DNA of 37,801 nt from a bacterium (GCA_046758365.1 JBHIAC010000016.1:1-37801); one strand, 5' to 3'; numbered from the stretch's first letter, positions 2,699 through 33,641 are shown. A program made the numbers and translations. Notes: generated by a model from the letters alone, not told the origin.

Positions 2699-2779
2699 AA
2701 GGGTATAAGGGAATAAGGTATAAGGTTTCGCAGTCCTGTAAAATAAGGAATCCTTATATCCCTATATCCTTATTTCCTT
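2699..2779. repeat. Inverted arms of ~8-bp tandem repeats with no gene between them
   Basis: Left arm AAGGGTATAAGGGAATAAGGTATAAGG (2699-2725); right arm CCTTATATCCCTATATCCTTATTTCCTT (2752-2779). Confidence 0.85.
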
Positions 2780-2810
2780 GTTGCTATGTTGCCCCTTTTG
2801 GACAAAAATT

Positions 2811-2849
2811 TTTTGCACAAAAAACAAAGATTTGACTGATAATACTATA
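2811..2849 (-). repeat. 39-bp dispersed repeat, copy A (putative element terminus)
   Basis: Reverse complement TATAGTATTATCAGTCAAATCTTTGTTTTTTGTGCAAAA matches 17780-17818 at 37/39 positions. Confidence 0.9.
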
Positions 2850-2857
2850 GTAGACCG

Positions 2858-4153
2858 ATGTATTTGAAATTAAATAAATTCTGCCCACTTTATATTCTTA
2901 TTATACTATTCTCTATTTCCCAAAGCCTGCAAGCGCAGAATATAAATGAAAGATTAGATAAAAAAGAGAGGCAAGATGTGAGGTTGCCTTTAAGATCAAC
3001 TTTGAATAGGGATAAAGTAAATGATGAATTGAAGAAAGAACCTTTCTCTGAAATGGAAAAGGAATTTGAAATGCAGGCTTTGGAAGCTCCTGTGGACCCA
3101 GATGACTATATCGTGGGGCCAGGAGATATTTTTCTAATCAATATATGGTCGATTATTGAAACAACGTTTAAAATAGCTGTCATGCCTGAAGGTAACATCA
3201 TAATACCAACCATCGGTTCTCTTCATGTCAATGGCAAAACAGTGTCTGAAGTAAGAAATATGGTGCAAGAGGCCGGGGCCAAAAAGTACCGCCAGTCTGA
3301 AATCACCACCAATTTATTAAAAATACGAAGTTTCCGCGTACATGTCACAGGCCAAGTTACAAATCCAGGTCTGTATGAAGCCTCAGCCATTGCGCGCGTG
3401 TCGAATATTATTAAAGAAGCCGGCGGATTGACAACCTGGGGTTATGAAAGGGCTATAAAAGTAAAGCATTTAGATGGTTCAGAAGAAACAGTCGATTTGC
3501 ACCAATATAAAAAACTTGGAAAGCTAGACTCCAATATTTATCTAAGGGGCGGAGACGTTATTTATGTACCTTCGATCAATTTCACTAAGGCAACGATTAA
3601 TGTTGAAGGGTTTGTGAATGATCCAGGGGTTTATCAACTGGCAGAAAAGGAGACTCTACAGGATTTTTTGCTTCGGGTAGATGCCTTTAACAAACGAGCT
3701 GATTTTAAACATGCCTATATTGAAAGGAAAACGGATTCCAATGGCGGGATTGAAATAATACCCATTTTCCCTTACCTGGAAAATTTAAGTAATGACCATT
3801 CGGAATTTTATTTACACGATGGCGATATAATCATGGTACCACAACGCCAGGAAGAAGTTTATGTAATTGGCGCCGTACAAGCACCAGGGCCTTATGTCTT
3901 TTATCCAAATCTTCGTGCCAGAGATTATGTTGGCTTTGCAGGCAGTACAGAGAGAGCTGCGAGTTTATCGAAAATTAAAGTAATTCGCACCAAGAGTAAA
4001 AAACAATTACGTGGCCAAGATTTGTTAATCGAACCCGGAGATACAGTAATTGTTCCACAAAAAGTTGATTTTGGTTTTAGAGAAATCACTACTTTGGTCA
4101 GTGCGATTACGGGAATTTTGTTATCTATGAAGGTAGTCGGGGTGATTAATTGA
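2858..4153 (+). CDS. SLBB-domain polysaccharide export protein (Wza/KpsD-like)
   Basis: Signal peptide, DYIVGPGD export motif, three GxVxxPGxY SLBB-like repeats, PGDTVIVP. Confidence 0.88.
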   Translation: MYLKLNKFCPLYILIILFSISQSLQAQNINERLDKKERQDVRLPLRSTLNRDKVNDELKKEPFSEMEKEFEMQALEAPVDPDDYIVGPGDIFLINIWSIIETTFKIAVMPEGNIIIPTIGSLHVNGKTVSEVRNMVQEAGAKKYRQSEITTNLLKIRSFRVHVTGQVTNPGLYEASAIARVSNIIKEAGGLTTWGYERAIKVKHLDGSEETVDLHQYKKLGKLDSNIYLRGGDVIYVPSINFTKATINVEGFVNDPGVYQLAEKETLQDFLLRVDAFNKRADFKHAYIERKTDSNGGIEIIPIFPYLENLSNDHSEFYLHDGDIIMVPQRQEEVYVIGAVQAPGPYVFYPNLRARDYVGFAGSTERAASLSKIKVIRTKSKKQLRGQDLLIEPGDTVIVPQKVDFGFREITTLVSAITGILLSMKVVGVIN

Positions 4154-4282
4154 AAGCACGTTAATAATAAATTTTTAGGATTTACATTTTTCCTCTAAGT
4201 TTTCATTTCACTTATCCGATCCATTATAATTCATTAATATATTAATTTATTGATTTTAATAAGAACTACATCCGTTTTTTGA

Positions 4283-5512
4283 ATGATTTCACGCGTTCGC
4301 AATGTCTTTATTATCTCAAGTTTTGGTGTTTTGGGTGGGTTTATTAAAAATATTTTGCTGGCGCGTGAACTTTCTAAAGATGAACTAGGTCTGTTCTCAT
4401 TGCTCATGGCCGTAGTTGGGTTTGTTTATCCTTTGACTTTATTGGGACAGCAAAATGCTATTGTACGATTTATGGCTAATAAAGAGTTTTCAAAATATAA
4501 CTGGCCAAAACAGTTTTGGCGTGTTCTGATATTGAGTTTAGTTTTGACCTGTGGGGCAGTTGCAATATTCACTCCAATTTATAACTTAGGTATTTTGGCT
4601 ATTATCTTTTTATTATTCACAACTTTCTCTTCGGGAGGTACAGACCTATTAGCCGCTATATTTCGTGCACAAAGGAAATATGAACTTTCTATGTTTACTT
4701 TTCGTTTACTCAGCTTGTTTTTGCCCGTGGTCGTTTTCTTGCTTTTGATTACAAAATTATTTACCTTTAAAAACATTTTAATTTTTTTTGCTGTTTTTTA
4801 TTTGCTTTCTCCAATTATAATGATTGGCGTTACAAGAAAAAAACTTTTAGTGGGCACGGAAGAGATTCCTAAGCTTGTCTGGAAGGACGGGTTATTTTTT
4901 TGGGGTTCTGATCTTTCCTTATTAATAATCTTTTCGGTAGATAGATTCTTTATCCCTAAGTTACTCAGCTATGAAGCCTTGGGGGAATATTTCGCTATTT
5001 ACTCTATCATGCGGCTTTTTGATTTGGTGCTTAAGTCTTTAGAATTCGTTATGATGCCTCATGTGAAAAAGTCACCTAAAATTCGATTAGGATGGCTCTT
5101 GGGATGGTCTTTGAGTATTGGTTTGATTCTATCTACGGCCTATTTGGTTTTCGGAAATTTATTGGTCTCTGTTTTATTTAAAGGCAAATATGACAGCACT
5201 ACTTTTTTGATTCCATTCTTTTGCATCTTAGGGGTTATTCGTTTGCTTCATGTGATACCTTACAGTGTGATAGGAGGTCTTCTAAATCAGGAACGTCTAA
5301 GACAAATGTTTTATGTTAATATTATAACCGTTGTATTGTGCGTAGTTCTTAGCTTCATATTAATAAAATCTTTTGGCTTGCTTGGTGCAGTAATTTCAAG
5401 TATTATCATTTGGATTCTTAAAACAGTAGCAGGATTTGGAATTATGTTTTTTGAAAAAATATTTGTCAAACAGAATAATTTACAGGTGGAAGGTGTCCAT
5501 ATCGATGTCTAA
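4283..5512 (+). CDS. Oligosaccharide flippase (Wzx-like)
   Basis: Polytopic membrane protein with LARELS-GLFS, VDRFFI-LGEY and FGLLGA motifs; locus context. Confidence 0.85.
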   Translation: MISRVRNVFIISSFGVLGGFIKNILLARELSKDELGLFSLLMAVVGFVYPLTLLGQQNAIVRFMANKEFSKYNWPKQFWRVLILSLVLTCGAVAIFTPIYNLGILAIIFLLFTTFSSGGTDLLAAIFRAQRKYELSMFTFRLLSLFLPVVVFLLLITKLFTFKNILIFFAVFYLLSPIIMIGVTRKKLLVGTEEIPKLVWKDGLFFWGSDLSLLIIFSVDRFFIPKLLSYEALGEYFAIYSIMRLFDLVLKSLEFVMMPHVKKSPKIRLGWLLGWSLSIGLILSTAYLVFGNLLVSVLFKGKYDSTTFLIPFFCILGVIRLLHVIPYSVIGGLLNQERLRQMFYVNIITVVLCVVLSFILIKSFGLLGAVISSIIIWILKTVAGFGIMFFEKIFVKQNNLQVEGVHIDV

Positions 5513-6671
5513 GTCTGAAGAAAAGTCTTTCATCCAGTTTTTAATGAATATACTAAAATGGAAGAGATTTTTATTTATTATTGTAAGTCTCTTTACAATT
5601 GCAGCATTAGTCATCAGTTTGTTCTTACCTAAATGGTATCGAGCAGAGACGAAAATATTGGGTGGGAGAAGCGAACTCAGCGATTTAGGATTATCTTCTT
5701 TCGCTGAGAATTTACCTTTAGAAGGGTTAGGGCTTATTCCTAAATCGGATAAAACTTTACGGTATTTAGCCATATTAAACAGCCGCACAGTTATGCTCAA
5801 TATAATAGATAGGTTTAATTTGCAAATTCGGTATAAAAAACCTAATTGGGAAAAAACCTTAATATTTTTGCAGAAAAATGTAAGTTTTGAAGTTAATCCA
5901 GATGAAACGATTAGTATTTTTGTCTTGGACAAATCTCCTGAGATGGCCTCTAAAATTGCCAACTCTTTTGTAAAAATGTTGGATAGTTTAAATATTCATC
6001 TCAAAGTAGAAAAGGCTAGAAATAATCGTAAGTTTCTTAATACCCGACTTGAAAGGTGTAAGTTAGATCTTTCCATTGCGGAACAAAATTTAAAAAATTT
6101 TCAAGAAGAATACGGATTAATTGATATTTCCGAACAATCAAAAGCAACCATAAACACTATTTCACAATTGGAGGCAGAGATTTTAGATAAAGAAACTGAA
6201 CTAAGATATAAACGCCACTACCTTTCTGAATATCACCTAGATATTGAAAACCTTATTACACAAATAAATGAACTTAAGGAGTCATTACAAAGAATAAAAT
6301 ATGGTTCAAAAAATGATATCAACGATGTCAACGGAACTAATGAGTTTCTTATACCAAGTAAAGAGGTCCCAGGGCTTGCTATGAAGTATTTTAGATTATT
6401 AAGGGAGGTAGAAGTACAAAATATTCTCTATAAATTACTAACTCAACAATTTGAACAATCAAAGATTTTAGAGGCGAAAGAAACACCGACGGTGCAAGTT
6501 TTAGACTGGGCTGTACCCCCTATTCAGAAATACCGACCCAAACGAGCATTTATTGTTTTGGGTGCCTTTTTTTTCAGCAGTTTTATCAGCCTATGTTTTG
6601 TGGCCGGAATTGAAAGGTGGAGAAGGTTTAGATTTGACTTGCAACAGCAAATAAATAAGAATGTTATCTAA
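5505..6671 (+). CDS. Wzz/GumC-like polysaccharide co-polymerase, no kinase domain
   Basis: Two TM helices flanking a coiled coil; LPKWYRA and VLDWAVPP-RPKR motifs. ATG 5505 overlaps the upstream gene end. Confidence 0.85.
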   Translation: MSKSEEKSFIQFLMNILKWKRFLFIIVSLFTIAALVISLFLPKWYRAETKILGGRSELSDLGLSSFAENLPLEGLGLIPKSDKTLRYLAILNSRTVMLNIIDRFNLQIRYKKPNWEKTLIFLQKNVSFEVNPDETISIFVLDKSPEMASKIANSFVKMLDSLNIHLKVEKARNNRKFLNTRLERCKLDLSIAEQNLKNFQEEYGLIDISEQSKATINTISQLEAEILDKETELRYKRHYLSEYHLDIENLITQINELKESLQRIKYGSKNDINDVNGTNEFLIPSKEVPGLAMKYFRLLREVEVQNILYKLLTQQFEQSKILEAKETPTVQVLDWAVPPIQKYRPKRAFIVLGAFFFSSFISLCFVAGIERWRRFRFDLQQQINKNVI

Positions 6672-8034
6672 TGGCTTAAAAAAGACATTTGTTGAGAAAG
6701 ATTGGATTTTTTGGACGATTTTTATTATTGTTCAAATTGGAACTTTAATAAACTTAGCCATCTTACCATACTTACCTATTTTCCCGTTGATTTCAATTCT
6801 CCTTTTGATATTAATTACCTCATATTATTTCCCAAAAGTTCTCTTGACCCTAATAGTGATATCGATCTTAGCATCTGAGGAACTATATTTTGAATTAGGC
6901 CTAGTAGTTGTAAGAATAATAGACATAATATTGCTCATCACTATTTTGTATATGTTCATGAAATGGCTTCTGCAATCGAAAATGAAAATAGAATCTTTAC
7001 CGATTTTTAAATTTGCTTTAGGCCTGATTATTTTGATGGCCTTTATTTCTTTAATTGGAACTTTATCAGTAAGCAACTCTCTGTTTGAGATTCTTCAAAT
7101 TATCGAACTTGTTATCGCTGCCATTTTGTTTTTCAATTTAATTAAGACAGAATCTGATATTAAACTGGTTCTAAGCACAATACTTATTTATAGCATAGTA
7201 GATGCCCTTTGGATATTTATTCAATATTGGCATGGAGATTTAATAGGTAGACATATTGGATTGTTTGGCACTTTAGCCAATGAATTAAGCTACGGTGTCG
7301 CATTGTCTGTGGGGTTTTTTTATCTTATTAGAAAAAAATGGCTCAGATTTGCTATCTTAATGAGTGGCGCTTTTCAAATTAGCGCCATTTATTTAACAAA
7401 GGGAAGGGGATTATTCATCACAGCCATAATAATGGCCTTAGTCTGTAGTTTATTGTTTGCCATGTATCGTAGGAGATACCTCTCGTTCGTTTATATAGCA
7501 GCTATGATTTTGATCGCCTGTTTAGTTTCTTTCTGGGTATTTTCATCTGAAATCCAGGCACGATATACCTCTATCATTGAAGGTGGGCAAATGAGAGACC
7601 TACGTTTAATATATTGGGCTGTGGCTTTAAAAGTATGGCAAAATTACCCTCTGTTTGGTGTCGGAGTTGGCAATATCAAGCTAGCTTCTGTACAATTTAC
7701 TCCTAAACCATTTGGACTTGCATTTGTAGCTTTAGGACAAGGGATGGAATCACCCCATAATGAATATCTGAGTTTTGCGATGCAGGCAGGTTGGATCGGT
7801 TTTATCTCTGGAATAATATTTTATATGATTCTTCTTTGGAATTCAATTCGTCTTTATTTAAAAAGTCGATTCCAGAATAAAGAATATTCAGTTCTCTTGT
7901 TATCATTTGTGATAGGACTTATTATTTGGAATATAGCAAATGATGTTCTATTGGCAGGCAAAGGTATCTTAGTGATGCTGTTCATCTCCATCCTATCAAG
8001 GATGCACGCCATACATGAAGATTATAGAATATGA
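6661..8034 (+). CDS. O-antigen ligase/polymerase (Wzy_C family)
   Basis: Multi-TM protein with LTKGRG, R-W-PLFGVGVGN and HNEYL motifs. Confidence 0.85.
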   Translation: MLSNGLKKTFVEKDWIFWTIFIIVQIGTLINLAILPYLPIFPLISILLLILITSYYFPKVLLTLIVISILASEELYFELGLVVVRIIDIILLITILYMFMKWLLQSKMKIESLPIFKFALGLIILMAFISLIGTLSVSNSLFEILQIIELVIAAILFFNLIKTESDIKLVLSTILIYSIVDALWIFIQYWHGDLIGRHIGLFGTLANELSYGVALSVGFFYLIRKKWLRFAILMSGAFQISAIYLTKGRGLFITAIIMALVCSLLFAMYRRRYLSFVYIAAMILIACLVSFWVFSSEIQARYTSIIEGGQMRDLRLIYWAVALKVWQNYPLFGVGVGNIKLASVQFTPKPFGLAFVALGQGMESPHNEYLSFAMQAGWIGFISGIIFYMILLWNSIRLYLKSRFQNKEYSVLLLSFVIGLIIWNIANDVLLAGKGILVMLFISILSRMHAIHEDYRI

Positions 8035-8066
8035 AATCAAGCTATTTTCCCTTTCAAAAATAAATT

Positions 8067-8987
8067 ATGGATGTCTCAATCATAATTGTTAATCATAACA
8101 CAAAAGAATTGTTAAAGGAACTACTCACTTCAATAACACAAAATGTTAAGAACATTTCTTATGAAGTCATAGTGGTAGATAATAATTCAACTGACGGTAG
8201 TTGCGAGTTATTTAAGACGAATTTTACAAAAGTTACTCTAATTGCAAATAAGTCTAACTTTGGATTCAGTAAAGCAAACAATCAAGCGGCCAAACTTACA
8301 AAAGGGAAGAATATTCTATTTGTAAATTCAGATACTATAGTTTGCGAAAATGCAATAGAAAGAATGTTTGCATTTTTAGAAAAAGAAAAATCAACAGCCG
8401 TAGTTGGTTGTAAACTTTTAAACAAAGACAATTCATTACAGCGGTCGTGCGGTATTTTTCCTAGACTCCTAACAGAATTTTATTTTAGAACCTTTCTTAA
8501 TCGCATTTTTCCAACAAGTAAAATATTTGGGTCGTTTAAATTGGGCTCATGGGATTATTCTTCTGTCTTAGAAGTCGATTGGGTTTCAGGAGCCTGTTTG
8601 ATGATAAGAAAAGAGATTTTTGACCAGATTGGCGGATTTGACGAACATCTTTATATGTATTATGAAGATGTAGACTTGTGCTTACGGGTTAAGAAGTTAG
8701 GATGGAAAATTTATTTTACTCCAAATGCCTCTGTGTATCACCTCCACGGAGGGTCATGGGAAAGAAATCGGGAAATACCTATTTTTAACAGTTGTATAAG
8801 TTCGTTATATTTTTTCCGAAAACATCATAAGAAATGGAAAATAATTTTTTTAAAATTATTCATATTAATTGAAACTTTTTTGAGCTATTTCGTCTTGATT
8901 CCTTATTTAGTCATAAAGGGAGAAGAGTATTCTGGGATAAAGTCTCGATTACGAGGCTATACAGCTTGTTTAAAGCATATTTTTTAG
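8067..8987 (+). CDS. GT2 glycosyltransferase (WbbL-like)
   Basis: VSIIIVNHN, VVDNNSTDGS, NFGFSKANN, WVSGACL and MYYEDVDLC motifs. Confidence 0.92.
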   Translation: MDVSIIIVNHNTKELLKELLTSITQNVKNISYEVIVVDNNSTDGSCELFKTNFTKVTLIANKSNFGFSKANNQAAKLTKGKNILFVNSDTIVCENAIERMFAFLEKEKSTAVVGCKLLNKDNSLQRSCGIFPRLLTEFYFRTFLNRIFPTSKIFGSFKLGSWDYSSVLEVDWVSGACLMIRKEIFDQIGGFDEHLYMYYEDVDLCLRVKKLGWKIYFTPNASVYHLHGGSWERNREIPIFNSCISSLYFFRKHHKKWKIIFLKLFILIETFLSYFVLIPYLVIKGEEYSGIKSRLRGYTACLKHIF

Positions 8988-9024
8988 TCAAAAAAGAAGT
9001 GTGTGAAATCTTTGAGAAATCCTG

Positions 9025-10425
9025 ATGATGCTCGCTCGAAGCAAACTGAAAAATATTAACCCCATATGGTATGTACTGTTAGCAGCTTTCGTTGTTAGAG
9101 TTCTAGTTCCATTGCTGGCGCTTATCATTACTAAAGACAATTCAGTATTCCATTCCAGAGACACAATCTCATACATAAGACCAGCCATGGAACTATTATC
9201 CTCAGGTCAATTCGCGAGTAATGGAATCCCAGAGATCGTCCGAACTCCGGGGCATCCACTATTTTTAATTCCCGGAATATTGCTAAATAAAACGGAACTA
9301 GTTACCATCGCTCTTCAAATAGTCTTGAGTTGTTTAACCGTGTATCTGATTTTTAGGATTGCATTAATACTATTCGATAGAGTTGAACTTGCGGTTCTAT
9401 GTGCACTCATGTATGTAATCGAACCCCTTTCTATATTATATACAAGCAAGCTTTTAACAGAAACGCTATTCACATGTCTAATTATCTTTTTTTTATACTA
9501 CTTGTTGATGTATATAAAGAACAGGTCATTAAACCAGCTACTCATTTCTGCAATCGCTTTAGCCGCATCTGTGTACGTCAGACCAATAAGCTATTACTTG
9601 CCTTTATTCATAACAGTTGTGCTTCTTATCTGGATATTGACCACGATGCCAAAAAAATCAATTTTGCTTATTCACACCTGTTTATTTTTTTTCGTTTCGA
9701 TGGGGCTTATTGGTTTATGGCAAATTAGGAATAAGGCCGAGACTGGATATACGGGCTTTTCCGCTATTACTGACATCAATCTATACTTCTATCAAGGAGC
9801 GTCTGTGATTGCTGTGCGACAAGGGGTACCCTACTATGAGATGCAAAACAAGATGGGATACCGAGATAAAGAGGTCTATTTTCTAAACCACCCTGAGCAA
9901 CGCCTATGGAATCAAAGTAAAAGGTATCAATATATGCGTAAAGAAGGAATAAGGATCCTACGGAATGATCCTTTTTTGTATTCAAAAATTCATTTAAAAG
10001 GGATAATTAGAACTCTACTTGATCCCGGCGCAATTGAGTATTTAAAATTATACAAGCTTTATCCTGAGTCCGGAGGGTTGCTTGGAATTATCGTTGATAA
10101 AGGTTTAGCAAAAACAGTCATAACTCTTATTAAAGAAAAACCTATAGTGTTCTGGATTAATTTACTGCTGGGAATGCTTTTAGCCCTGTATTTTTTGTTT
10201 GGAGTAACAGCTTTACTGTCCAAGAATTTTATTTACGATATGCCAATTATCACGCTTCTTTGTGTAGGTATCTACTTTTTAATATTTTCTGGAGGGCCAA
10301 ATAGTTTAAACAGGTTTCGGCATCCAATTATGCCGTTTCTGTGTATTCTTGCGGGACATGGTTTATCTTTGCTTTTTGGAAAGTTAATTTTGAAAAAAAC
10401 TTCGCACACCGGCGTTGTTGTGTAA
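9025..10425 (+). CDS. GT-C fold membrane glycosyltransferase (ArnT/PMT-like)
   Basis: DT-SY, RTPGHPLFL, LLTETLF, YVRP and RFRHP motifs; many TM segments. Confidence 0.72.
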   Translation: MMLARSKLKNINPIWYVLLAAFVVRVLVPLLALIITKDNSVFHSRDTISYIRPAMELLSSGQFASNGIPEIVRTPGHPLFLIPGILLNKTELVTIALQIVLSCLTVYLIFRIALILFDRVELAVLCALMYVIEPLSILYTSKLLTETLFTCLIIFFLYYLLMYIKNRSLNQLLISAIALAASVYVRPISYYLPLFITVVLLIWILTTMPKKSILLIHTCLFFFVSMGLIGLWQIRNKAETGYTGFSAITDINLYFYQGASVIAVRQGVPYYEMQNKMGYRDKEVYFLNHPEQRLWNQSKRYQYMRKEGIRILRNDPFLYSKIHLKGIIRTLLDPGAIEYLKLYKLYPESGGLLGIIVDKGLAKTVITLIKEKPIVFWINLLLGMLLALYFLFGVTALLSKNFIYDMPIITLLCVGIYFLIFSGGPNSLNRFRHPIMPFLCILAGHGLSLLFGKLILKKTSHTGVVV

Positions 10426-10523
10426 ATGTTTCACTACATCGGCGTTTGTCAGAGGTTTCAAGCACGCAATTTAATTATTTTTAAAAATAGCTACTGTAAA
10501 AAATCTGTGTACGACTTAGAATA

Positions 10524-11654
10524 ATGCACTTCGTAATCGACGCACATTTAGCTGTAAAAAAAATTGATGGGGTCGCCAGATATTTAATGGGTCTTTTATC
10601 CGAACTCCCCCAAATTGACAGGTCTATTCAGTACTCAATTCTGACTCTACCTCTTGAACATTCAAGCTTGCCCGAAGATATCTTTAAACAACCAAATGTT
10701 AACCGGGTCAGATTCAATTTAATAGGGCCGTCTCCAATACAGCATTTGAAGATGCGGAGTTTATTAAAAGACTTGAAAGCAGATCTTTATCATCATCCTC
10801 AATATGATTTGCCTTTTGGAGTGCAGGTCCCTTCGGTTGTAACTATTCACGATTTAAAATATCTCTTTCATGCGGAGTTTTTAAAGAAAGGAAGTCTACT
10901 AAAAAGCCTTTATATAAAGAAATCGCTTCAGCATACTATAAAGGCTGCAGACCAAATAATAGTCGCTTCGCAAAATACGCTGAGTGATTTAATAAAATTA
11001 TTTTCATTTGAGCAAGATAAAGTAACGATAATTTATCATGGCGTTAATCCTGCCTCGAAATCTTCTTCCAATCATAACCATGATTTCTTTGATATTCCAA
11101 ATGAATTTATTTTATTTGTGGGTACCCGTAGACCCCATAAAAATATTGAAGGATTAATTAAAGCATTAGCCATTTTGCGTAACAATCATAAACTTAATGT
11201 TGATTTGGTTATATCGGGCAAAGCCTACTCCGAATATTCAAAACCAGAGAAAGTGGTAAAAGAATTGGGTATCGAGACGCACACACATTTTTTAGATTTT
11301 GTTTCAGAGACAGAACTTACATCATTGTATCAGGCAGCCAAATTGGTAGCATTACCATCTTTCTATGAAGGGTTTGGCTTCCCATTGCTTGAAGCAATGT
11401 CTTATGGAAAACCTGTAATCGGATCCAATTTAAGCTCAATGCCTGAAGTGATTGGTAATGCCGGACTCTTGGTGGATCCTTATAATCCAAACGACATTGC
11501 TAAAAAAATCCATGAGATTATAACGGACTCCAATTTATACCAAAAGCTTTCAGAAGCAGGTCTGGAACGTTGCAAACAATTTTCTTGGAGTTCTGTTGCA
11601 AAAGCCACTTTTAATGTTTATATTAAGGCTTTAAAAATTAAAAAAATTAGCTAA
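10524..11654 (+). CDS. GT4 glycosyltransferase
   Basis: VVTIHDL, HKNIEGL and EGFGFPLLEAM motifs. Confidence 0.92.
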   Translation: MHFVIDAHLAVKKIDGVARYLMGLLSELPQIDRSIQYSILTLPLEHSSLPEDIFKQPNVNRVRFNLIGPSPIQHLKMRSLLKDLKADLYHHPQYDLPFGVQVPSVVTIHDLKYLFHAEFLKKGSLLKSLYIKKSLQHTIKAADQIIVASQNTLSDLIKLFSFEQDKVTIIYHGVNPASKSSSNHNHDFFDIPNEFILFVGTRRPHKNIEGLIKALAILRNNHKLNVDLVISGKAYSEYSKPEKVVKELGIETHTHFLDFVSETELTSLYQAAKLVALPSFYEGFGFPLLEAMSYGKPVIGSNLSSMPEVIGNAGLLVDPYNPNDIAKKIHEIITDSNLYQKLSEAGLERCKQFSWSSVAKATFNVYIKALKIKKIS

Positions 11655-14324: not shown

Positions 14325-15650
<1,326 letters not shown>

Positions 15651-16330: not shown

Positions 16331-16861
<531 letters not shown>

Positions 16862-16964
16862 ACAACAACCCTAATTTATTTTATTTATTCTCATAAACCT
16901 ATTCGAAATTGACTAATAAGAAATAATTCTGACTATTTTATTCGTGTTGCCCCTTTTAATAACT

Positions 16965-17124
16965 ACACTATTGTAAATTTAACATATTTGCTCTCTGAAT
17001 GTCATTCCAGCATGTTTTAAGCGGGAATCCATCAGTAAATTAGGCATGAGATTCCCGATAAAATTATTCGGGAATGACGATTTCGATTCGATTTACATGA
17101 CTTAGTTGAATTTTACAAGAGTCT
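16965..17124. repeat. Nested palindromic MITE/REP-like element
   Basis: GTCATTCC (17001) pairs with GGAATGAC (17071); CGGGAATC (17022) pairs with GATTCCCG (17050). Outer imperfect IR ACACTATTGTAAA / TTTACAAGAGTCT, 11/13. Confidence 0.75.
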
Positions 17125-17237
17125 TGTAATAAAAAGAATTAGTAAGCATTTTATTTGAAAAAATTATCTTGCTGTTCTCAAGTAGATACTCTATATTTTA
17201 TTATCTTATAGCAATTTGTGAGCAAAAGGCATTTTCT

Positions 17238-17756
17238 ATGACACAAAAAGAATTTATGAACCGCGTTGCAAATGGAAAAGAGGACATCTTACAACGCCTC
17301 CTTGATCTGTTAAATGAACATGAAATTGATTATTGTCTTATCGGTGGATTAGCTGTGAATGCCTATGTTGAACCTGTGGTAAGTTTGGATTTGGATATGG
17401 TAGTGGCTGCTGATGCAATAGATAAATTAAGCAAAGTTGCAGAAAAATTGTTTACAATAAAAAAGTTTCCTCATAGTTTGAATCTAAAAAGCCCACAATC
17501 TAATTTACGTATCCAATTGCAAACTAACTCCCGTTATCAATCTTTTATCAGTAGTGCCTCAAACAAAAAAGTAATGGGCTATACCATGAAGGTTGCCTCT
17601 TTGGAAGATGTCTTGAAAGGCAAAATTTGGGCCTATTCTGATGAGCAAAGGCGAAAAAGTAAACGACAAAAAGACTTAGCAGATATTTTTCGTTTAATTG
17701 AGGAATACCCACATCTGTCAGAATTATTGCCAGAATCTATAAAAACTATTGGATAA
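17238..17756 (+). CDS. Stand-alone nucleotidyltransferase-fold protein
   Basis: LIGGLAVNAY...SLDLD (GG plus DxD) and C-terminal K...KDLADI. ATG 17238 preferred over TTG 17169. Confidence 0.8.
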   Translation: MTQKEFMNRVANGKEDILQRLLDLLNEHEIDYCLIGGLAVNAYVEPVVSLDLDMVVAADAIDKLSKVAEKLFTIKKFPHSLNLKSPQSNLRIQLQTNSRYQSFISSASNKKVMGYTMKVASLEDVLKGKIWAYSDEQRRKSKRQKDLADIFRLIEEYPHLSELLPESIKTIG

Positions 17757-17779
17757 GAAACAGCATCTACTAATCGTAT

Positions 17780-17818: not shown

Positions 17819-17839
17819 GATCTCTACCAAAATATACTT

Positions 17840-24133: not shown

Positions 24134-25027
24134 ATGATAAGTCGGCAGCGTCTGGAGTCCGTCTCGGAATTTATCATTGAATGGACGATTCGATTCTGCG
24201 GGATTAGTGCGATTTTATTTGTTTTTGGGATTTTCTTCTTCGTGTTCCGCGAAGGTGCTGACTTCCTTTTCCATGGCCTAAATATCCGAGAGTTCTTCAC
24301 CAGTCCAGAGTGGTACCCCACTTCTGTAAGCCACAAAAGATACGGGGTTCTGGCCTTGATGGCGGGAACTGGCAGCGTAACTCTGCTTTCTATGGCCATG
24401 GCAGTCCCCTTCGGCCTGGGTTCAGCGATCTTCATTTCCGAATTTTGCAGCCCTAAACTCAAAGAGACATTTAAGATTGTCATCGAGCTTCTGGCAGCTA
24501 TTCCCTCCGTGGTCTGGGGCTTCATCGGTTTGACGGTGATGAACCAACTCATCATTTCATTATTTGATGCACCGATTGGCTTGACGGTGCTAAACGGCGG
24601 CATCATTCTGGCGCTCATGAGTGTGCCCATCATTGTTTCCATTGGAGAAGACGCCCTCAAGGCGGTACCGGATTCCTATCGAGAAGCGGCCGAAGCGCTC
24701 GGTGCGACCCGCTGGCAGCTCGTGTACCGGGTTCTTTTGCCAGCCGCAAAAAATGGCTTGTTGGCTGCAGTCCTGCTGGGAATCGCCCGCGCTATTGGGG
24801 AAACCATGGCCGTACTCATGGCCACCGGCCATGCGGTAAAAATCCCGACCGGCTTACTCGATTCAGTTCGAACTTTGACGGCTACCATCGCAGCCGAACT
24901 CGGCGAAGCCCCCGTGCATTCAGACCATTACCAGGTATTATTCATTATTGGTGTTTTGCTTTTTTCCATCACCTTCGTGGTGAATCTCACCGCCGACTTG
25001 ATTGTAAAAGGTATTCGAAAAAAGTAA
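24134..25027 (+). CDS. pstC: Phosphate ABC transporter permease
   Basis: ELLAAIPSVVWG, EAA loop and RAIGETMAV motifs. Confidence 0.95.
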   Translation: MISRQRLESVSEFIIEWTIRFCGISAILFVFGIFFFVFREGADFLFHGLNIREFFTSPEWYPTSVSHKRYGVLALMAGTGSVTLLSMAMAVPFGLGSAIFISEFCSPKLKETFKIVIELLAAIPSVVWGFIGLTVMNQLIISLFDAPIGLTVLNGGIILALMSVPIIVSIGEDALKAVPDSYREAAEALGATRWQLVYRVLLPAAKNGLLAAVLLGIARAIGETMAVLMATGHAVKIPTGLLDSVRTLTATIAAELGEAPVHSDHYQVLFIIGVLLFSITFVVNLTADLIVKGIRKK

Positions 25028-25028
25028 G

Positions 25029-25063
25029 TGCTTGAGGCTGGTTGCTGGATGCCTGTTGCTGGT
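25029..25063. repeat. Heptamer tandem array, left arm (consensus TGCTGGT, 5 units)
   Basis: TGCTTGA GGCTGGT TGCTGGA TGCCTGT TGCTGGT, starting just after the pstC stop. Confidence 0.85.
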
Positions 25064-25114
25064 ATCACAATACAAAATGAGACAATAAATAATAATTGAA
25101 CGAGGCCGTATGTG

Positions 25115-25549
25115 ATGGCCAAAGAAAAGCCAAAGAGCTATCGTGATCTTGAAATTTGGAAAATGGCGCATGAACTGGCCGTGGCGGTTCATAAAATGAC
25201 TCTTGAAAAGTTGCCCAAGTTTGAAATGTATGAGGAAGGAAACCAGGTCCGTCGCTCATCGAAATCCATTTCGAGCAATATTGCGGAAGGTTTTGGCAGG
25301 AAAAGGTACAAGAATGAATACATCAAGTTTCTGACTTACGCTCTAGCATCCTGCGATGAAACCCACGAACACTTAGAATTGCTTTTTGAAACGGGATCAC
25401 TGACTGACACACGACTCTTTGAAAATCTATTTGAACGCTATGATATTCTCGGAAGGAAAATAAATAAATTCCTGCAAAAGATCATTTATGATTATCAACC
25501 ACCTAAAGATTTAGTTGCACAACAATTTTTGTACGATGAAGATGAATAA
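25115..25549 (+). CDS. Four-helix-bundle protein (TIGR02436 / 23S rRNA IVP-like)
   Basis: SYRDLEIWK, QVRRSSKSISSNIAEG and FL-A-S-E motifs. Confidence 0.93.
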   Translation: MAKEKPKSYRDLEIWKMAHELAVAVHKMTLEKLPKFEMYEEGNQVRRSSKSISSNIAEGFGRKRYKNEYIKFLTYALASCDETHEHLELLFETGSLTDTRLFENLFERYDILGRKINKFLQKIIYDYQPPKDLVAQQFLYDEDE

Positions 25550-25558
25550 GCAGAAGCA

Positions 25559-26500
25559 ATGCCAAACCAACAGCTAACAACCAGCAACCAGCAACAAGCA
25601 ACGAGCAGCCAGAGCATGTTTGCGGAAACCGCTCTCGGCCGCAGAAAAAAATTCAGTGAATACGCAGCCAAAGTCATTTTTCTTCTAATGACGCTACTCA
25701 TGATTTTCCCCTTGCTTCTCATCGTTGGTTATCTGTTCTACAAAGCTTTTCCAATTTTATCCCTTGATTTCTTGCTAACCAATCCAATACGCGGTATGCG
25801 CGCCGGTGGTATCTGGTCGCCTTTATTAGGCACCTTATATCTGATTGGTATTTCATTGCTCGTCTCTGCTCCCATTGGTGTGTTAGCCGCGGTTTATCTC
25901 AATGAATACGCCGGTGAAAATTGGCTGACCCGGATCATAAATCTTGCGGTAGTGAATCTTGCAGCCGTTCCCAGTATTGTGCACGCATTGTTTGGTCTCG
26001 GTGCGTTTGTGCTGTTCGCAGGTATGGGCCGTTCTATTCTTGCAGCTTCCCTCACTCTGGCTATTATGACCTTACCCGTGATCATAGCCGCCACCAAGGA
26101 AGCACTGGGTGCGGTTCCCATGGCATTTCGTGAAGCCTGCTGGAATGTTGGCGCCACCCGCTGGCAAACTATCCGAAAAATTGTACTGCCAAACTCTATC
26201 GGCGGGATATTAACCGGGATCATTCTGCAAGTGTCGCGAGCGGCTGGCGAGACCGCGCCCATCATGTTTACCGGCGCTGTTTTCTATAAAGCCATAAAGG
26301 AAGGAGATATATTTGCTTACGGTTTATTTGATCAGGTCATGGCTTTATCGATGCACCTGTTCACCATCTCCACACAAGTACCTAATGTGCCGGAAGCTTT
26401 GCCTTATGGGACGGCCGTTGTCCTATTGGGTACTGTATTGCTGGTCAATGCATTTTCCATCATATTACGAGTTTACTTGCGGGCTCGAAAAAAGTGGTAG
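25559..26500 (+). CDS. pstA: Phosphate ABC transporter permease (start 25559 or 25616)
   Basis: AAVYLNEY, NLAAVPSIV, REA-GATRWQ and RAAGETAP motifs. Confidence 0.93.
   Translation: MPNQQLTTSNQQQATSSQSMFAETALGRRKKFSEYAAKVIFLLMTLLMIFPLLLIVGYLFYKAFPILSLDFLLTNPIRGMRAGGIWSPLLGTLYLIGISLLVSAPIGVLAAVYLNEYAGENWLTRIINLAVVNLAAVPSIVHALFGLGAFVLFAGMGRSILAASLTLAIMTLPVIIAATKEALGAVPMAFREACWNVGATRWQTIRKIVLPNSIGGILTGIILQVSRAAGETAPIMFTGAVFYKAIKEGDIFAYGLFDQVMALSMHLFTISTQVPNVPEALPYGTAVVLLGTVLLVNAFSIILRVYLRARKKW
25566..25614. repeat. Heptamer tandem array, right arm (consensus ACCAGCA, 6-7 units)
   Basis: ACCAACA GCTAACA ACCAGCA ACCAGCA ACAAGCA ACGAGCA GCCAGAG; reverse complement of the left-arm unit. Confidence 0.9.
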
Positions 26501-26514: not shown

Positions 26515-26598
26515 GTTTAGGAGTTCTGGTGTTAAAGTGCTAACGTGTTTAGCTTCTCAAGCAAGCGAACGCTCTAACACTCTCAATTATTTCAACAC
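26515..26598. repeat. Degenerate inverted arms of ~8-bp repeats with no gene between them
   Basis: GTTTAGGA GTTCTGGT GTTAAAGT GCTAACGT GTTTAG versus GAACGCTC TAACACTC TCAATTAT TTCAACAC. Confidence 0.65.
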
Positions 26599-26616
26599 CT
26601 CTTTAGAGGTATCCCA

Positions 26617-26653
26617 CCAACTCGTTCCCAAGTTAAACATGGGAACGAGCTGG
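26617..26653. repeat. REP-like hairpin
   Basis: CCAACTCGTTCCCA-N9-TGGGAACGAGCTGG, 13/14 stem, no U-tract. Confidence 0.8.
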
Positions 26654-26696
26654 AACCTCACTGTAACCGAGGTTTTACGATTACAGGGTAGATTCG

Positions 26697-29633: not shown

Positions 29634-29675
29634 ATTTTTTTTAATTTACCTATTAAATTAGTAGATTATTGATTT

Positions 29676-30001: not shown

Positions 30002-30964
30002 TTATTCCCATTTACTAAAATTAATTGCATTAGGATCATCTCTTTGTGAGAACCCGTTTAAAGTCATGCGAAGGTCACTATGTACTATTTTAAAATCTCT
30101 TTTTGCGATATACTCATATCCCCGACAATAGCGAGTAGGCACCCGCAGATAGATTTCTGTTAGGTACTCAGTTCGAGCCCAATCCTCTATCTCCTCAAGA
30201 AATGCATCCAAAGTATTTATGGGTAAATCTGAAGACATTTGTAGCACATTGATTTTGAGGTACTGTCGGACTTCTTCTTGAGAATACGGCTCAGTGTGGG
30301 CTAAAACAAAGCCCAGAGCTGCTTGATCTTTCGTCAACAAACAAGCATCCCCAAAACCATACTCAGTTGCCAATTGAACTTCTCTGGTGTAATCCAATCC
30401 CGGCTCCAAGGAATTGGACAACTGCCGCATTTGTGTCAAAAATTTCTCAGCCCTAATCGGTTCGATCTTACTGAATTTGACCGATTCAAATGATGTGGGT
30501 CGGTTCTGACTTGCCTTTGGGAAAACATGACGGACAAAATCTACCGTTAATTTGTCTGGCACAAATCCCAATTTTGTATAGAAACCCAAATTTCTATTAG
30601 AATGAGAAGGCATTTCAAGTCCTATGGTCTGAGCACCATTTCTGTTAAGAAATTCGATGCAAGCCGAGACCACTTCCTTTCCATATCCATGACCTTCTTG
30701 CGCAGGAATGACACTTAGGGGTCCAATCCATCCAACGGTTCCCCAGAGCCGCGAAAAACTATACGCAATGATTTCACCGTCCTTTTCGATGACAAAAGAC
30801 CCATCTGGACAGGAAGCTAAATACATTTCTAAGAATTCAATACGGCAAAGTGGTATTCGATCCGGCCGATAGCCATCTTGTACGCTGGCATGGGTAAATG
30901 ATTTTGAAAGAATTAAGTTAACGCGGTGCAAATCCCCCTGGGTCATACACCTTAGCGATATCAT
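30002..30964 (-). CDS. GNAT-family N-acetyltransferase
   Basis: IGPLSV-QEGHGYGK acetyl-CoA motif and N-GFYTKLGF. Confidence 0.88.
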   Translation of the reverse strand: MISLRCMTQGDLHRVNLILSKSFTHASVQDGYRPDRIPLCRIEFLEMYLASCPDGSFVIEKDGEIIAYSFSRLWGTVGWIGPLSVIPAQEGHGYGKEVVSACIEFLNRNGAQTIGLEMPSHSNRNLGFYTKLGFVPDKLTVDFVRHVFPKASQNRPTSFESVKFSKIEPIRAEKFLTQMRQLSNSLEPGLDYTREVQLATEYGFGDACLLTKDQAALGFVLAHTEPYSQEEVRQYLKINVLQMSSDLPINTLDAFLEEIEDWARTEYLTEIYLRVPTRYCRGYEYIAKRDFKIVHSDLRMTLNGFSQRDDPNAINFSKWE

Positions 30965-31137
30965 CCTTTTCTGCCTCTACCAATAGCGACTCGTAAGGCC
31001 ATACCGCCTCGTAGGGTTTGTAATCCAAAGATAACCAAAAGCACGGGATCCTTTCCAACAAAGAAATATACATAAATCAAACCCATAATTGCGGTCATCA
31101 AAAAGGGTAAAACATTAATGTCATTTCTTTTCACCAT
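30961..31137 (-). CDS. 58-aa small hydrophobic protein (absent from the ORF track)
   Basis: MVKRNDINVLPFLMTAIMGLIYVYFFVGKDPVLLVIFGLQTLRGGMALRVAIGRGRKG*. GGAG RBS; ATGA overlap with the GNAT start. Confidence 0.6.
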   Translation of the reverse strand: MVKRNDINVLPFLMTAIMGLIYVYFFVGKDPVLLVIFGLQTLRGGMALRVAIGRGRKG

Positions 31138-31308
31138 TCATTCACTCCAAAAGTAATTATTTGCTCCGGTGAGCACATTTTCCATAGTTTAACAAAATCA
31201 GGCAGAATTCTAAATATAAAATAATGGCTTTAATAAACAAGTAAAATTACCACAATCCAAGTCGAAGGTGCTCTAAAGAGTTTTAGTGTCTGAAATCGGC
31301 GCCCCCCT

Positions 31309-31600
31309 ATCAACGATGAGGTAAATGGGAAGTCAGTAGTGGCGACAAGCATGAAATTGGCGGCTTTTTATATCAGCTAATCAAGATTTACTCGAAAGGG
31401 AACTGATCTAACCTTTGACGTCAAAACAGAATCCCCAATATTGACCCTGTTAACTTGATAGACAATGAGGGAAACGTCTGAAACATTCTTGGAGAGGCTG
31501 ACTCTGGAGCACGGTGCTGGTGAAAAATTAACTCCTATTGTTTCCTACAGTGCTTACTGGCTTGCCGGGGGTAGTTTTTCCAGATGTACCTGTTTACTAA
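31309..31600 (+). pseudogene. Decayed 3' fragment of a DUF3179-like gene
   Basis: Across frames: INDEVNGKSVV, LTFDV, LIDNEGNV*NILGEADSG, GEKLTPIVSYSAYWLA, FPDVPVY*. Confidence 0.6.
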
Positions 31601-32481
31601 TTAACCCTAAAAAATCGTCTATTCCCCTCTCGGCGGAATGGCATAGCAAGGTAACCTTGACCTAAAGCTTCCACATTTTCACCGAGACTTTCGATTAATA
31701 GCCGGGGAACATCTTCGTTTTTGATTAACAGATATGGAATTACTTCATATTCACCCTTAGGGAGATCTTCAAGAGTCATCTTAATAGCCATGGTTCGCAT
31801 CACTGGTACGGAATCAATGGTATCTAGATCACTTTCAACCAGACCCGCTATGGCAGATTGAAGAATAACTACATCATCCGTGGTAATATTCCTAAAAATC
31901 AAAGGGCCAAACGTATCGTTGACCAAAGCGGGAAAAAACACCACCACCGTATCGGTTGTGGCTTCCAAAGTGACATCAACTCTCAAGATAAATGCTGCAT
32001 CCGCCGCCGACTCAAAATCAGCAGCCGACACCGAGGAAGGTCTGACATGTGTAGTAATTCGCAAGTTCTGAAATAAAGTTTTCGGGTTATTTAATTCACC
32101 GTTACCATCGACTTCTCCCTGAGAATAAACAAAAAAGCCATTTCTTGTGAATACTTGAGTTGAGTCTAAGTTGAAATTAGCAACAAAATAATAAATATTG
32201 AACGCTCCTGTCACTCCCGCGGGATTGCCTTGGCTCGATGGCAAAGGTAAGGTTATTTGGAAGTTTCCTTGTTCATCGGTTCTGGTGCCAATATCAAAAC
32301 CCTCCAGCCAGACATAAACACTGGCTGGGCTCATATTATTGCCAAGTTGAACTTTGCCGCGTATTTCTCTGTTTTCTGCTGAAACTTCAACTTCACCAAT
32401 AGGATTTTCAGTGCAGCCATGAATGACCACGAGGGAAATAAAAACGATAAGATTAGTTAGGTGCCACCTGCATAATTTCAT
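31597..32481 (-). CDS. Hypothetical lipoprotein with carboxypeptidase-regulatory-like N-domain (paralog 1)
   Basis: IHGC lipobox-like signal; VYVWLEGFDIGTRTDEQGNF. Confidence 0.8.
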   Translation of the reverse strand: MKLCRWHLTNLIVFISLVVIHGCTENPIGEVEVSAENREIRGKVQLGNNMSPASVYVWLEGFDIGTRTDEQGNFQITLPLPSSQGNPAGVTGAFNIYYFVANFNLDSTQVFTRNGFFVYSQGEVDGNGELNNPKTLFQNLRITTHVRPSSVSAADFESAADAAFILRVDVTLEATTDTVVVFFPALVNDTFGPLIFRNITTDDVVILQSAIAGLVESDLDTIDSVPVMRTMAIKMTLEDLPKGEYEVIPYLLIKNEDVPRLLIESLGENVEALGQGYLAMPFRREGNRRFFRVN

Positions 32482-32518
32482 TCGGCTAACCTCCTAGTTC
32501 TTGCTAAATAAGATATAT

Positions 32519-33394
32519 CTATATTTTTTTACCCGTTTCTACTACAAACTGACCTCCCTCACGTATAAAAGGTATCTCAAGATAATTTGACCCAATTTCC
32601 ATTACATCCTCACCAATACTACTTATCAATTCCTCGGGAACGCTATCGTGTCTCAAGAATAGATATGGTATGACTTCATACCTACCCACGGGTAACTCCC
32701 CAGGTTCTAACCTCTTAACAAAAGTCCGAGTGCGAGAATCCTCGTCTACCACCAGAAGATCTCCGAACTCAAAACCACCGAATACAAATCCGTGAATTAC
32801 AAATACGGTATCCGTGCCAATTTTTTCAAAGATAAGAGGAGCAAAGTATTGTCCAACCATCGTCGGGAAAAATACGGTAACTGTGTCCTCTATAGCTTGT
32901 AATCTAACATCTGCACGTATGATCCTACCAGAATCCCTCTCCACGGTATCGGGGATCATTTCAGTAAATATCCTAAGAGCCTGGGTTAGAAAAATCGGAC
33001 TATGAAATTCACCATCTTGATTGAGCCCGCCTTGGGAATAGACAAACAAGCCATCTTTAACAGCTACAGGTTTGATAACTAGATTAAAGTTAGCTATATA
33101 GAAATAAAGATTAAACACCCCACTAACACCCCCAGTTGACTGGCTAGAAGGTGGCGGTAATTCGATCCGAAAATTTCCTTGCTCATCGGTTTTGGTTCCG
33201 ATATTGAAACTTTCAAGCCAAACATATACTCCTTCTAATGGATTTAATTCTTGGCTGACTTGTACAACGCCGCTGATTCTTCTATCGCCACCGCTTATTT
33301 CATCATCACCAAAAGGGTTGCTTGTACAGCCTGAGAGAACCGAAAGCCCAATCACTATGGCAGCAATACTTGCCAGAGACCGTGTTGCTTTCAT
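32519..33394 (-). CDS. Hypothetical lipoprotein (paralog 2)
   Basis: LSGC lipobox; VYVWLESFNIGTKTDEQGNF and YEVIPYL shared with its neighbour. Confidence 0.82.
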   Translation of the reverse strand: MKATRSLASIAAIVIGLSVLSGCTSNPFGDDEISGGDRRISGVVQVSQELNPLEGVYVWLESFNIGTKTDEQGNFRIELPPPSSQSTGGVSGVFNLYFYIANFNLVIKPVAVKDGLFVYSQGGLNQDGEFHSPIFLTQALRIFTEMIPDTVERDSGRIIRADVRLQAIEDTVTVFFPTMVGQYFAPLIFEKIGTDTVFVIHGFVFGGFEFGDLLVVDEDSRTRTFVKRLEPGELPVGRYEVIPYLFLRHDSVPEELISSIGEDVMEIGSNYLEIPFIREGGQFVVETGKKI

Positions 33395-33451
33395 GATGAA
33401 TTCCTCCCTCTGTAACTTTACAAAAATTGTAACTATTCAGGCATATTAGAA

Positions 33452-33641
33452 GGCAAGACTATTTAGGGCAAAACAATTTCCTATGACGATTTTCACTCGC
33501 TTGATTATGAAGTGATGGGGTTCGTGTTGTCGATTCATCGACACTTAGGAAGATTTTGGAACGAGAGGATTTACCAAAACGAACCTGCTTATCGTTCATA
33601 CATAAAGCTTTTCATAATAGTCTTGCCCAAAATCGTTTTGC
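33452..33641 (+). pseudogene. GxxExxY-family N-terminal remnant (33482-33595) flanked by inverted ~14-bp-period repeats
   Basis: YDDFHSLDYEVMGFVLSIHRHLGRFWNERIYQNE. Arms GGCAAGACTATTTAGGGCAAAACAATTT and AATAGTCTTGCCCAAAATCGTTTTGC. Confidence 0.7.

Follow-up and report, generated by a model that had tools for sequence, protein, structure and literature searches.

Inverted repeats that flank small genes or form hairpins between genes are known from several bacterial systems, and we compare the closest of them with elements found in a 37,801-nt stretch of bacterial DNA (GCA_046758365.1 JBHIAC010000016.1:1-37801; the window, with positions counted from its first letter). The elements are cassettes of one small gene between inverted arms of short tandem units, together with gene-less hairpins; in the window they lie between pstC and pstA (25029-25614) and at 33429-33667, 2699-2779 and 17840-17910. 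We think that these loci are probably members of a population of selfish, hairpin-forming DNA and not stages at fixed docking sites.

In Coxiella burnetii, a 428-nt intervening sequence in helix 45 of the 23S rRNA encodes the protein S23p and has been called selfish (PMC4990558). Judged by an excerpt of that source, the cassette between pstC and pstA shares with such intervening sequences a PF05635/TIGR02436 protein and the layout of a small gene between complementary ends in a host transcript. It differs in that the host is the mRNA of the pstC-pstA operon and the ends are phased tandem heptamers, and in the existence of gene-less derivatives and of a second cargo, GxxExxY, with the same design.

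Paired inverted sites have also been described in Geobacter metallireducens, where they consist of four octamers GTTGCTYN (24 pairs), three 8- or 9-mers (21 pairs) or five heptamers (8 pairs), and where one pair lies between proB and proA (Aklujkar 2009, PMC2700814). On the evidence of the excerpted text, these sites are like our arms in being numerous opposite-strand pairs, with a variable distance between the partners and three to five tandem 7-9-nt units in each, and the octamer resembles the GGTTGCT unit of the window. The same excerpt reads them as putative 'global regulator' sites for integration host factor (IHF) or HU and draws no link to helix-bundle or GxxExxY genes.

The REPIN/RAYT system, i.e. 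hairpins of repetitive extragenic palindromes (REP) and the associated tyrosine transposases, is, in the portion of the account at hand, likewise made of multi-copy extragenic hairpins of inverted repeat doublets, with several families per genome, and of single genes flanked by cognate repeats; the lack of a target duplication is shared by our heptamer-armed type (Bertels and Rainey 2011, PMC3116915). Set against that portion, the cargo here is PF05635 or PF13366 and not a Y1/HUH transposase, and the arms are non-palindromic tandem arrays. Hairpin doublets are over-represented in the extragenic space of the host genome, as REPINs are, but the sole IS200-like Y1_Tnp gene of the assembly is flanked by other repeats. 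This gene (C230:2246-2933) lies between REP-like inverted repeats of the GGGTCAGCGCCACCCTG type and is an ordinary RAYT-like unit coexisting with the other families.

Integron gene cassettes are single-gene units that lack a promoter and lie in sense orientation, and their hairpin sites are imperfect and vary in sequence; each cassette has one attC, and their arrays lie beside an integrase gene and attI. Our elements resemble them as single-gene sense units with structure-based hairpin sites, and differ in having two flanking arms, in being scattered over operon junctions and in having no integrase context. A search of the full-text literature, subscription journals not covered, returned no description of a gene-in-arms cassette.

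Cassettes around helix-bundle and GxxExxY genes

The initial annotation of the window described 7-mer arms around an intact four-helix-bundle gene at 25029-25614, and both parts of this description hold. The arms form the longest of the 114 inverted pairs in the window, and their match repeats on five registers in 7-nt steps, which is the signature of tandem heptamers. The open reading frame (ORF) between them matched PF05635 (E 2e-28, 99.1 bits, cut-off 33.8) and TIGR02436 (97.8 bits, cut-off 24). The four-helix-bundle protein is related to Avd, the pentameric accessory protein of diversity-generating retroelements. A PDB sequence search with the window protein gave 2gsc as the sole match. 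In the minimum-energy fold of 25020-25625 both arms pair and form a stem around the ORF, with the pstC stop codon and the pstA start codon at its base. The likely pstA start codon, at 25616, was assigned by alignment to relatives, which share that start; the longest pstA ORF begins at 25559, so that the right arm is read as coding. The location is not that of the rRNA intervening sequences, which lie in helix 25 or 45 of the 23S rRNA, as the cassette sits between pstC and pstA and Rfam found no rRNA in the window.

The arms accompany both gene families well beyond this contig. We surveyed helix-bundle and GxxExxY loci in 40 relatives, with mirror and permuted-flank controls, and found multi-register inverted arms at 19 of 27 PF05635 loci (mirror 2, permuted 1) and at 18 of 29 usable GxxExxY/PF13366 loci (mirror 1, permuted 0). 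Homologues of the window protein with 55-77% identity occur in metagenome-assembled genomes of many phyla, labelled as KSB1, Acidobacteria, Verrucomicrobia, Planctomycetota, Ignavibacteria, Nitrospirae, Bacteroidales, Deltaproteobacteria, Clostridia and others, and none of 80 such homologues was adjacent to pstC or pstA. Arms were detected at 53 of 78 usable cross-phylum loci (mirror 0), with a 7-nt spacing in 48 of the 53. Swapped flanks, which join the upstream side of one locus to the downstream side of another, still scored positive in 13 of 78 cases because the units are alike.

What the units share is a short core. Counted where three or more copies stand in 7-nt phase, G[AT]T[GA]C was found on the sense strand upstream of the gene at 53 of the 78 loci and as the complement downstream at 40, and the other strands gave 2 and 1. 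The phased and polar core argues that the arms are not arbitrary sequence selected only for pairing. The proposal that the process depends on structure rather than on sequence does not agree with a core that is kept across phyla in fixed polarity. Each gene lineage has its own unit sequence. A grouping of the helix-bundle proteins at 45% identity, meant to compare proteins with units, placed 22 of 35 in one cluster with many unit types and was too coarse for that comparison.

Regarding orientation, all five sites named in the initial annotation do lie between co-oriented genes. Among the homologous helix-bundle loci, both neighbours were co-oriented with the cargo at 61 of 70 and both opposed at one, and the cargo was in sense relative to the upstream gene at 68 of 70. 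The corresponding figures for GxxExxY loci were 19 of 25 co-oriented and none of 25 opposed. Random insertion orientation into co-directional gene pairs is expected to give equal numbers. The bias fits a dependence on host read-through and is no proof of it.

Inverted tandem-unit pairs in the host genome

Arm pairs are in clear excess over controls in the host assembly (G000). A strict scan (inverted seeds with k=7, at least 3 diagonals and at least 10 seeds) returned 47 inverted pairs, against 2 mirror-repeat controls and 6, 1 and 2 pairs in three local shuffles; in four or five of the 47, a co-binned strain may have caused the same locus to be assembled twice (e.g. C52/C99, C78/C180, C15/C24, C36/C60). 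On this point the initial annotation, which had taken the lack of an excess over shuffled intergenic DNA as refuting its reading, is supported. At a lax threshold (at least 4 seeds) the pairs were mostly noise, with 575 real and 366-418 shuffled. Pairing of arrays called by Tandem Repeats Finder (TRF) gave 17 inverted pairs only and missed the window loci; it was too insensitive, and the seed and diagonal scan was therefore used instead.

The gap between the arms is at most 110 nt in 31 of the 47 pairs, which are gene-less, 111-300 nt in three, 301-700 nt in nine and longer in four. Among the 16 gaps of at least 150 nt, four contain helix-bundle (PF05635) genes, two are shells with no ORF, bounded by arms of a kind that flanks GxxExxY genes elsewhere, one contains an IS200-like Y1 gene with REP-like flanks and one a possible Y1-gene fragment without a Pfam match. 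The others hold ZapA, DeoC, a TadA-like deaminase, a helicase/DUF790 junction or ORFs without a family, and these are in part chance pairs or genes between two separate shells. Looked at from the side of the genes, inverted tandem-unit arms, each with its own unit, flank all six PF05635/PF13366 genes of the assembly that have both flanks assembled (C16, C18, C23, C72, C158 and C179). On C34 the left arm is present before the contig ends, and on C134, where the upstream flank measures only ~130 nt before the contig start, no arms were seen.

The initial annotation stated that the unit differs at every locus. This is true inside the window, but genome-wide the units form multi-copy families. Cassettes lose their gene through internal deletion, and the resulting shells persist. 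The gene-less hairpin C15:18057-18237 matches the helix-bundle cassette on C23 over 123 nt with 83% identity, and the match spans the first codons of the C23 gene and 22 nt past its stop codon; a second gene-less hairpin, C1:116855, retains a shorter stub of the same gene.

Some loci are more complex. A mini-hairpin (CACCCCGTGAGATAA...TTATCTCACGGGGTG) is nested in cassettes and shells of two different families (C34:22250-22330, C23:22930-23000 and copies L213, L214 and L217 of the relative G007); it is an element inserting into these elements. At C158:1-1200 three arrays of one unit family enclose, in this order, genes for a TadA-like deaminase and a helix-bundle protein, and a tRNA gene lies just past the outermost array.

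A miniature transposon with a GxxExxY gene stub

The initial annotation also noted a GxxExxY fragment at 33452-33641, and the locus extends to a full element of 239 bp (33429-33667). Its fold is strong (z -4.45 for 33430-33670, with none of 200 shuffles folding as well), and 33470-33596 aligns with 88% identity to the 5' end of a TIGR04256 gene that is intact on contig C34 and whose protein reaches 67.8 bits with TIGR04256 (cut-off 35) and 71.2 bits with PF13366. The stub in the window was not detected by a profile search of the assembly, and no PDB entry matched the GxxExxY protein in sequence. Aligned to the C34 cassette, the window element matches the left end and 127 nt of the gene and then skips to the right arm, and it is a deletion derivative of that cassette. 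The identical deletion junction recurs in at least five copies at other loci of G007 whose flanks all differ, so that the deletion preceded the spread of the shell. At least one kind of shell thus multiplies as a non-autonomous element.

The element has a terminal inverted repeat, a target-site duplication, copies at multiple unrelated loci and no internal transposase, as expected of a miniature inverted-repeat transposable element (MITE). At seven terminal-repeat pairs in the host assembly the flanking octamers match in 8, 8, 8, 7, 8, 5 and 5 of 8 positions, while the next 8 nt outward, taken as a control for the same pairs, match in 3, 3, 2, 3, 4, 1 and 1. The duplication thus reaches at least 7/8 in five of the seven pairs, against a control maximum of 4/8.

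The terminal repeats of IS66 elements begin with GTAAGCG, and their direct repeats are 8 bp long (PMC11946415). As the quoted part of that source has them, IS66-derived MITEs share with our element a terminal repeat beginning with GTAA, an 8-bp direct duplication, the lack of a transposase and a high copy number. Our element departs from them, as they appear there, in its nuclease-gene stub, its internal two-unit arms and its repeat GTAACTATTCAGG, which is not GTAAGCG. The terminal repeat and the 8-bp duplication make 33429-33667 a conventional non-autonomous transposon in which the remains of a nuclease cassette happen to lie, and it would be moved by a cut-and-staggered-insertion transposase supplied in trans, possibly IS66-like. 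The assembly has one IS66-family gene (PF03050), on the partial 1.9-kb contig C295, and no full insertion sequence (IS) carrying the 13-bp repeat end is assembled in it.

The same 13-bp repeat also bounds an unrelated MITE of ~125 nt. A separate MITE-like repeat, which encloses a GTCATTCC...GGAATGAC hairpin, lies in the window at 16955-17141; another 12 matches to it, full or partial, are present in the host assembly and several dozen (up to ~40) in G007. The related 125-nt copies, found elsewhere, have the 13-bp repeat at their ends.

Gene-less hairpins and their repeat families

Four of the five loci to which the initial annotation assigned one common architecture are real. The fifth, an 8-mer arm pair at 26515-26598 taken there for an empty pair, was rejected: 36 of 200 shuffles equalled its fold (z -0.76), and no second copy was found in the host assembly. 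The same gap between pstA and pstB contains a simple strong hairpin (z -4.79 for 26596-26690) with relatives on C190 and C57.

The hairpin at 2699-2779 sits between a UDP-glucose dehydrogenase gene and an SLBB polysaccharide-export gene. It has a fold z of -3.70, with none of 200 shuffles as good, and its unit (GGTATAAGG type) was found at seven loci of the host assembly. In the relative G015 an intact PF05635 gene is bracketed by the same type of unit. We found no terminator-like site (GC-rich stem followed by a T run) in 2600-2900. The hairpin at 17840-17910 folds better still (z -6.38, none of 200 shuffles as good). Its arms have two C[CT]AACGGAT units each, and this family B has ~20 hairpin loci in the host assembly, as convergent motif pairs; in a six-copy alignment the flanks are conserved over ~190 nt. 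Five family B hairpins have a common loop of ~100 nt (C11:124-250, C24:205-331, C26:20081-20190, C50:2960-3103 and C71:7765-7908), which may be a small RNA or a remnant of other cargo. The 'empty' pairs are copies of dispersed repeat families, with conserved sequence reaching beyond the hairpin, and not vacated sites or sites in waiting.

Both hairpins carry a promoter-like sequence. A near-invariant 45-nt motif (TTGCAC..N..GATAATACTATA) occurs at 42 sites of the host assembly, mostly 45-90 nt 5' of a start codon, and is preceded by hairpins that belong to at least five different unit families. The motif resembles a promoter tail that is either mobile or shared. A consensus scan at 2814-2843 gave TGCACA-18-GATAAT; the second copy in the window, at ~17795-17832, aims at no gene.

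Gene junctions in related genera

The junctions occupied in the window are arm-free, hairpin-filled or gene-filled across relatives, so the polymorphism expected in the initial annotation for pstC-pstA, pstA-pstB and the dehydrogenase-SLBB junction does exist. Gap lengths are approximate, being read off alignment coordinates. Among 11 related genera with both genes in the fetched locus, the pstC-pstA gap is ~11-87 nt and arm-free in seven, 171-202 nt in three and 566 nt in one (G040); by coordinates it measures ~1.47 kb in G032. Within the 171-202 nt class, G037 has a strong plain hairpin, and G014 has, directly 5' of the pstA start codon, a heptamer tract that is 79% identical to the right arm in the window and contains no gene. 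This tract is probably a decayed allele. Between pstA and pstB, seven of the 11 relatives have at most 36 nt, and G014 has a 196-nt pair of inverted heptamer arrays. The dehydrogenase-SLBB gap is at most 27 nt in six of 12 syntenic relatives, and it is occupied by an inverted heptamer hairpin of another family in G005, by an array of ACGGAT units in G014 and by a plain hairpin in G010. Short junctions of co-oriented genes are thus hit repeatedly by different families. G014 has hairpin or array inserts at all three junctions, with unit families different from those of the window genome.

Sequence context of the window

The window is the entire contig C16 (37.8 kb) of its assembly, which comprises 3.74 Mb in 318 contigs with 38.4% G+C, a completeness of 95% and a contamination of 8.2%. 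Apart from a truncated tRNA gene, Rfam at gathering thresholds matched nothing in the window and no family at any of its hairpins. A Pfam scan of 33 window ORFs revealed no integrase-family domain, and the statement of the initial annotation that no recombinase is encoded in the window stands; the rest of the assembly was not searched for an integrase. Outside the window, the assembly encodes one IS66-family DDE gene and one IS200-like Y1 gene. A complete serS (14382-15650) is followed by a C-terminal-only serS fragment (16337-16861) and a fragment of an AbiEii-type toxin gene (17169-17756), a scarred stretch beside the repeats.

Positions 30093-37801 are ~100% identical to G007:C128:1-7709, G007 being placed in another genus, and the remaining window is missing from G007 or at most 81% identical there. 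This pattern of identity points to a mis-binned contig, a chimeric join or a very recent transfer. The locus 33429-33667 is identical within the shared stretch, which makes it uninformative on presence/absence polymorphism.

Table 1. Features annotated in the window
Feature	Position	Strand	Remarks
Left arm of helix-bundle cassette	25029-25063	+	~five GGTTGCT-type heptamers; begins 2 nt past pstC stop codon
Four-helix-bundle gene, intact, 144 aa	25115-25549	+	PF05635 / TIGR02436
Right arm of helix-bundle cassette	25566-25612	+	reverse complement of left-arm units; ends 4 nt 5' of likely pstA start
Miniature transposon, 239 bp	33429-33667	+	terminal inverted repeat, two-unit arms, GxxExxY stub
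Terminal inverted repeat, 13 bp, GTAACTATTCAGG	33429-33441 and 33655-33667		13/13 bp
Two-unit arms inside miniature transposon	33452-33474 and ~33619-33645
GxxExxY gene stub, 127 nt	33470-33596		~41 N-terminal codons; catalytic part deleted
Target-site duplication, 8 bp, CAAAAATT	33421-33428 (left) and 33668-33675 (right)		8/8 identical
Gene-less hairpin, family A	2699-2779	.	~three GGTATAAG-type 8-mers per arm; TRF rows
Promoter-like motif	2812-2850	+	attached to hairpin; 8 nt 5' of SLBB start 2858
Family B dispersed repeat, ~190 nt	17773-17963	-	core hairpin 17840-17910
Promoter-like motif, second copy	~17795-17832	-	within family B repeat
Simple strong hairpin	26617-26655	.	pstA-pstB gap; small repeat family
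Polysaccharide-synthesis cluster	279-14239		Pfam annotation
Phosphate block	pstC 24134-25027		PHO4, PhoU, pstS, pstC, pstA, two pstB-like ATPases; Pfam annotation
TonB-receptor-type genes	after phosphate block	-	Pfam annotation
tRNA gene	1-51	-	truncated by contig end; Rfam

Interpretation

The best reading of the window loci is that they are small-gene cassettes and deletion derivatives of such cassettes, sense-oriented in operons, and we lean towards seeing them as part of a larger selfish hairpin-forming population. The full-length form is a cassette of ~0.5-0.7 kb with one small gene, either a TIGR02436 helix bundle or a TIGR04256 GxxExxY nuclease of the PD-(D/E)xK type, between inverted arms of 2-12 tandem units of 7-9 (up to 17) nt each. 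The gene would have no promoter of its own and would be expressed through read-through from the host operon. In the transcript the arms may pair, loop the cassette out and rejoin the upstream stop codon with the downstream start codon, so that an operon would tolerate the insertion, in the manner of rRNA intervening sequences. A protein acting on the ends may bind the phased units as an array of sites.

Several observations weigh against this reading. The helix-bundle cassette of the window is a single copy in the host assembly, and the fragmentation of this assembly and its ~8% contamination make copy counts approximate. At the ends of the 53 heptamer-armed cassettes an 8-bp duplication of at least 7/8 was found in none, and 6/8 matches in three, against seven in an offset control; for these cassettes no transposition event, intermediate or enzyme was observed. 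The 13-bp repeat of the miniature transposon was not seen on C295, itself a partial contig. That the unit core is conserved could be due to its linkage with the gene rather than to recognition by the protein. Orientation was measured on intact genes only, and the bias of the cargo is only mildly stronger than among ordinary genes of the host assembly, of which 77% are co-oriented and 3.7% opposed. Pairing of the arms at the RNA level is itself a prediction; the sense arms folded better than the antisense arms in 35 cases against 18 (mean -2.1 kcal/mol, p 0.057), and related loci are not independent.

A further and rather unlikely idea, which we put forward tentatively, concerns the two proteins themselves. 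The helix-bundle protein and the GxxExxY nuclease would be the end-recognising proteins of mobile cassettes that have no recombinase, each lineage reading its own phased 7-9-nt unit (e.g. G[AT]T[GA]C per 7 nt) on the hairpin or cruciform of the arms and helping its own cassette and, in trans, the shells to be copied or excised. We know of no work linking either fold to mobility. If the idea were true, a partnership like that of RAYTs and REPINs would exist on two further folds, and bacterial heptamer repeats and rRNA intervening sequences would be one phenomenon.

Other explanations have to be weighed against the selfish population. The arms could be an RNA device, forming a long stem in the operon transcript that RNase III cuts, which would free the mRNA of the small gene or uncouple the flanking cistrons, with mobility being incidental. 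This has some appeal, as the gene family is that of the rRNA intervening sequences (PF05635/TIGR02436; PMC4990558, as excerpted), the predicted fold brings the pstC stop and the pstA start to the base of the paired arms, the cargo is almost always in sense to the upstream gene, and sense arms fold slightly better than antisense arms. However, a stem alone requires neither tandem phasing nor a conserved 5-nt core, gene-less shells multiply, the fold z of the entire cassette is only -1.24, and the difference between sense and antisense is not significant; we hold the RNA device to be rather improbable. Still less credible is that the arrays are host regulatory sites, binding a global DNA-bending regulator or acting as terminator or promoter modules, with the small genes as unrelated neighbours. 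The paired arrays of Geobacter metallireducens have been described, in the text excerpted, as putative IHF/HU sites (PMC2700814), and 2699-2779 and 17840-17910 each carry the 42-copy promoter-like motif. Yet shells retain stubs of cargo genes, the same junction is tight in some genera and filled by unrelated families in others, target duplications flank one type of shell, one of the two motif copies in the window points to no gene, and the sequence around 2699-2779 has nothing resembling a terminator.

The initial annotation saw in the five loci the stages of one gain and loss process that is structure-dependent and sequence-independent, with empty pairs that are vacated or receptive. Filled, decayed and gene-less states do exist and are linked by homology, and the junctions are truly polymorphic, but the loci are not one uniform system. 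The miniature transposon has a terminal repeat and an 8-bp duplication while the heptamer-armed cassettes have no such duplication, so that end structures differ between families; units are conserved and specific to lineages; internal deletion produces gene-less copies, which then spread in the deleted form; and we saw no case of a gene entering a pre-existing empty pair. In the form originally given, this scheme is therefore hardly likely. The thought that the loci are unrelated slippage products and chance palindromes that form no system gains something from the noise among pairs at the lax threshold and from the failure of one of the five loci. It is refuted by the mirror, shuffle and permuted controls, among them the 47 pairs against 1-6 at the strict threshold, and it does not agree with multi-copy families that have conserved flanks or with the cross-phylum association with two gene families; we give it next to no credence.

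Implications

The cassettes and their shells look like a little-described kind of selfish DNA. The two large orphan families TIGR02436 and TIGR04256 and the unexplained hepta-, octa- and nonamer repeats of many bacteria become one testable subject, in which the repeats are the ends and remains of cassettes carrying these genes. Such cassettes enter operons between genes; in some cases they contribute promoter-like sequence, and in some they are read as coding, as in the pstA ORF. For annotation this means that the hairpins should not be labelled as regulator sites or terminators by default and that the starts of adjoining ORFs need care. For the biology of mobile DNA, they offer gene-bearing and gene-less members with a conserved phased end motif that can be compared across more than a dozen phyla.

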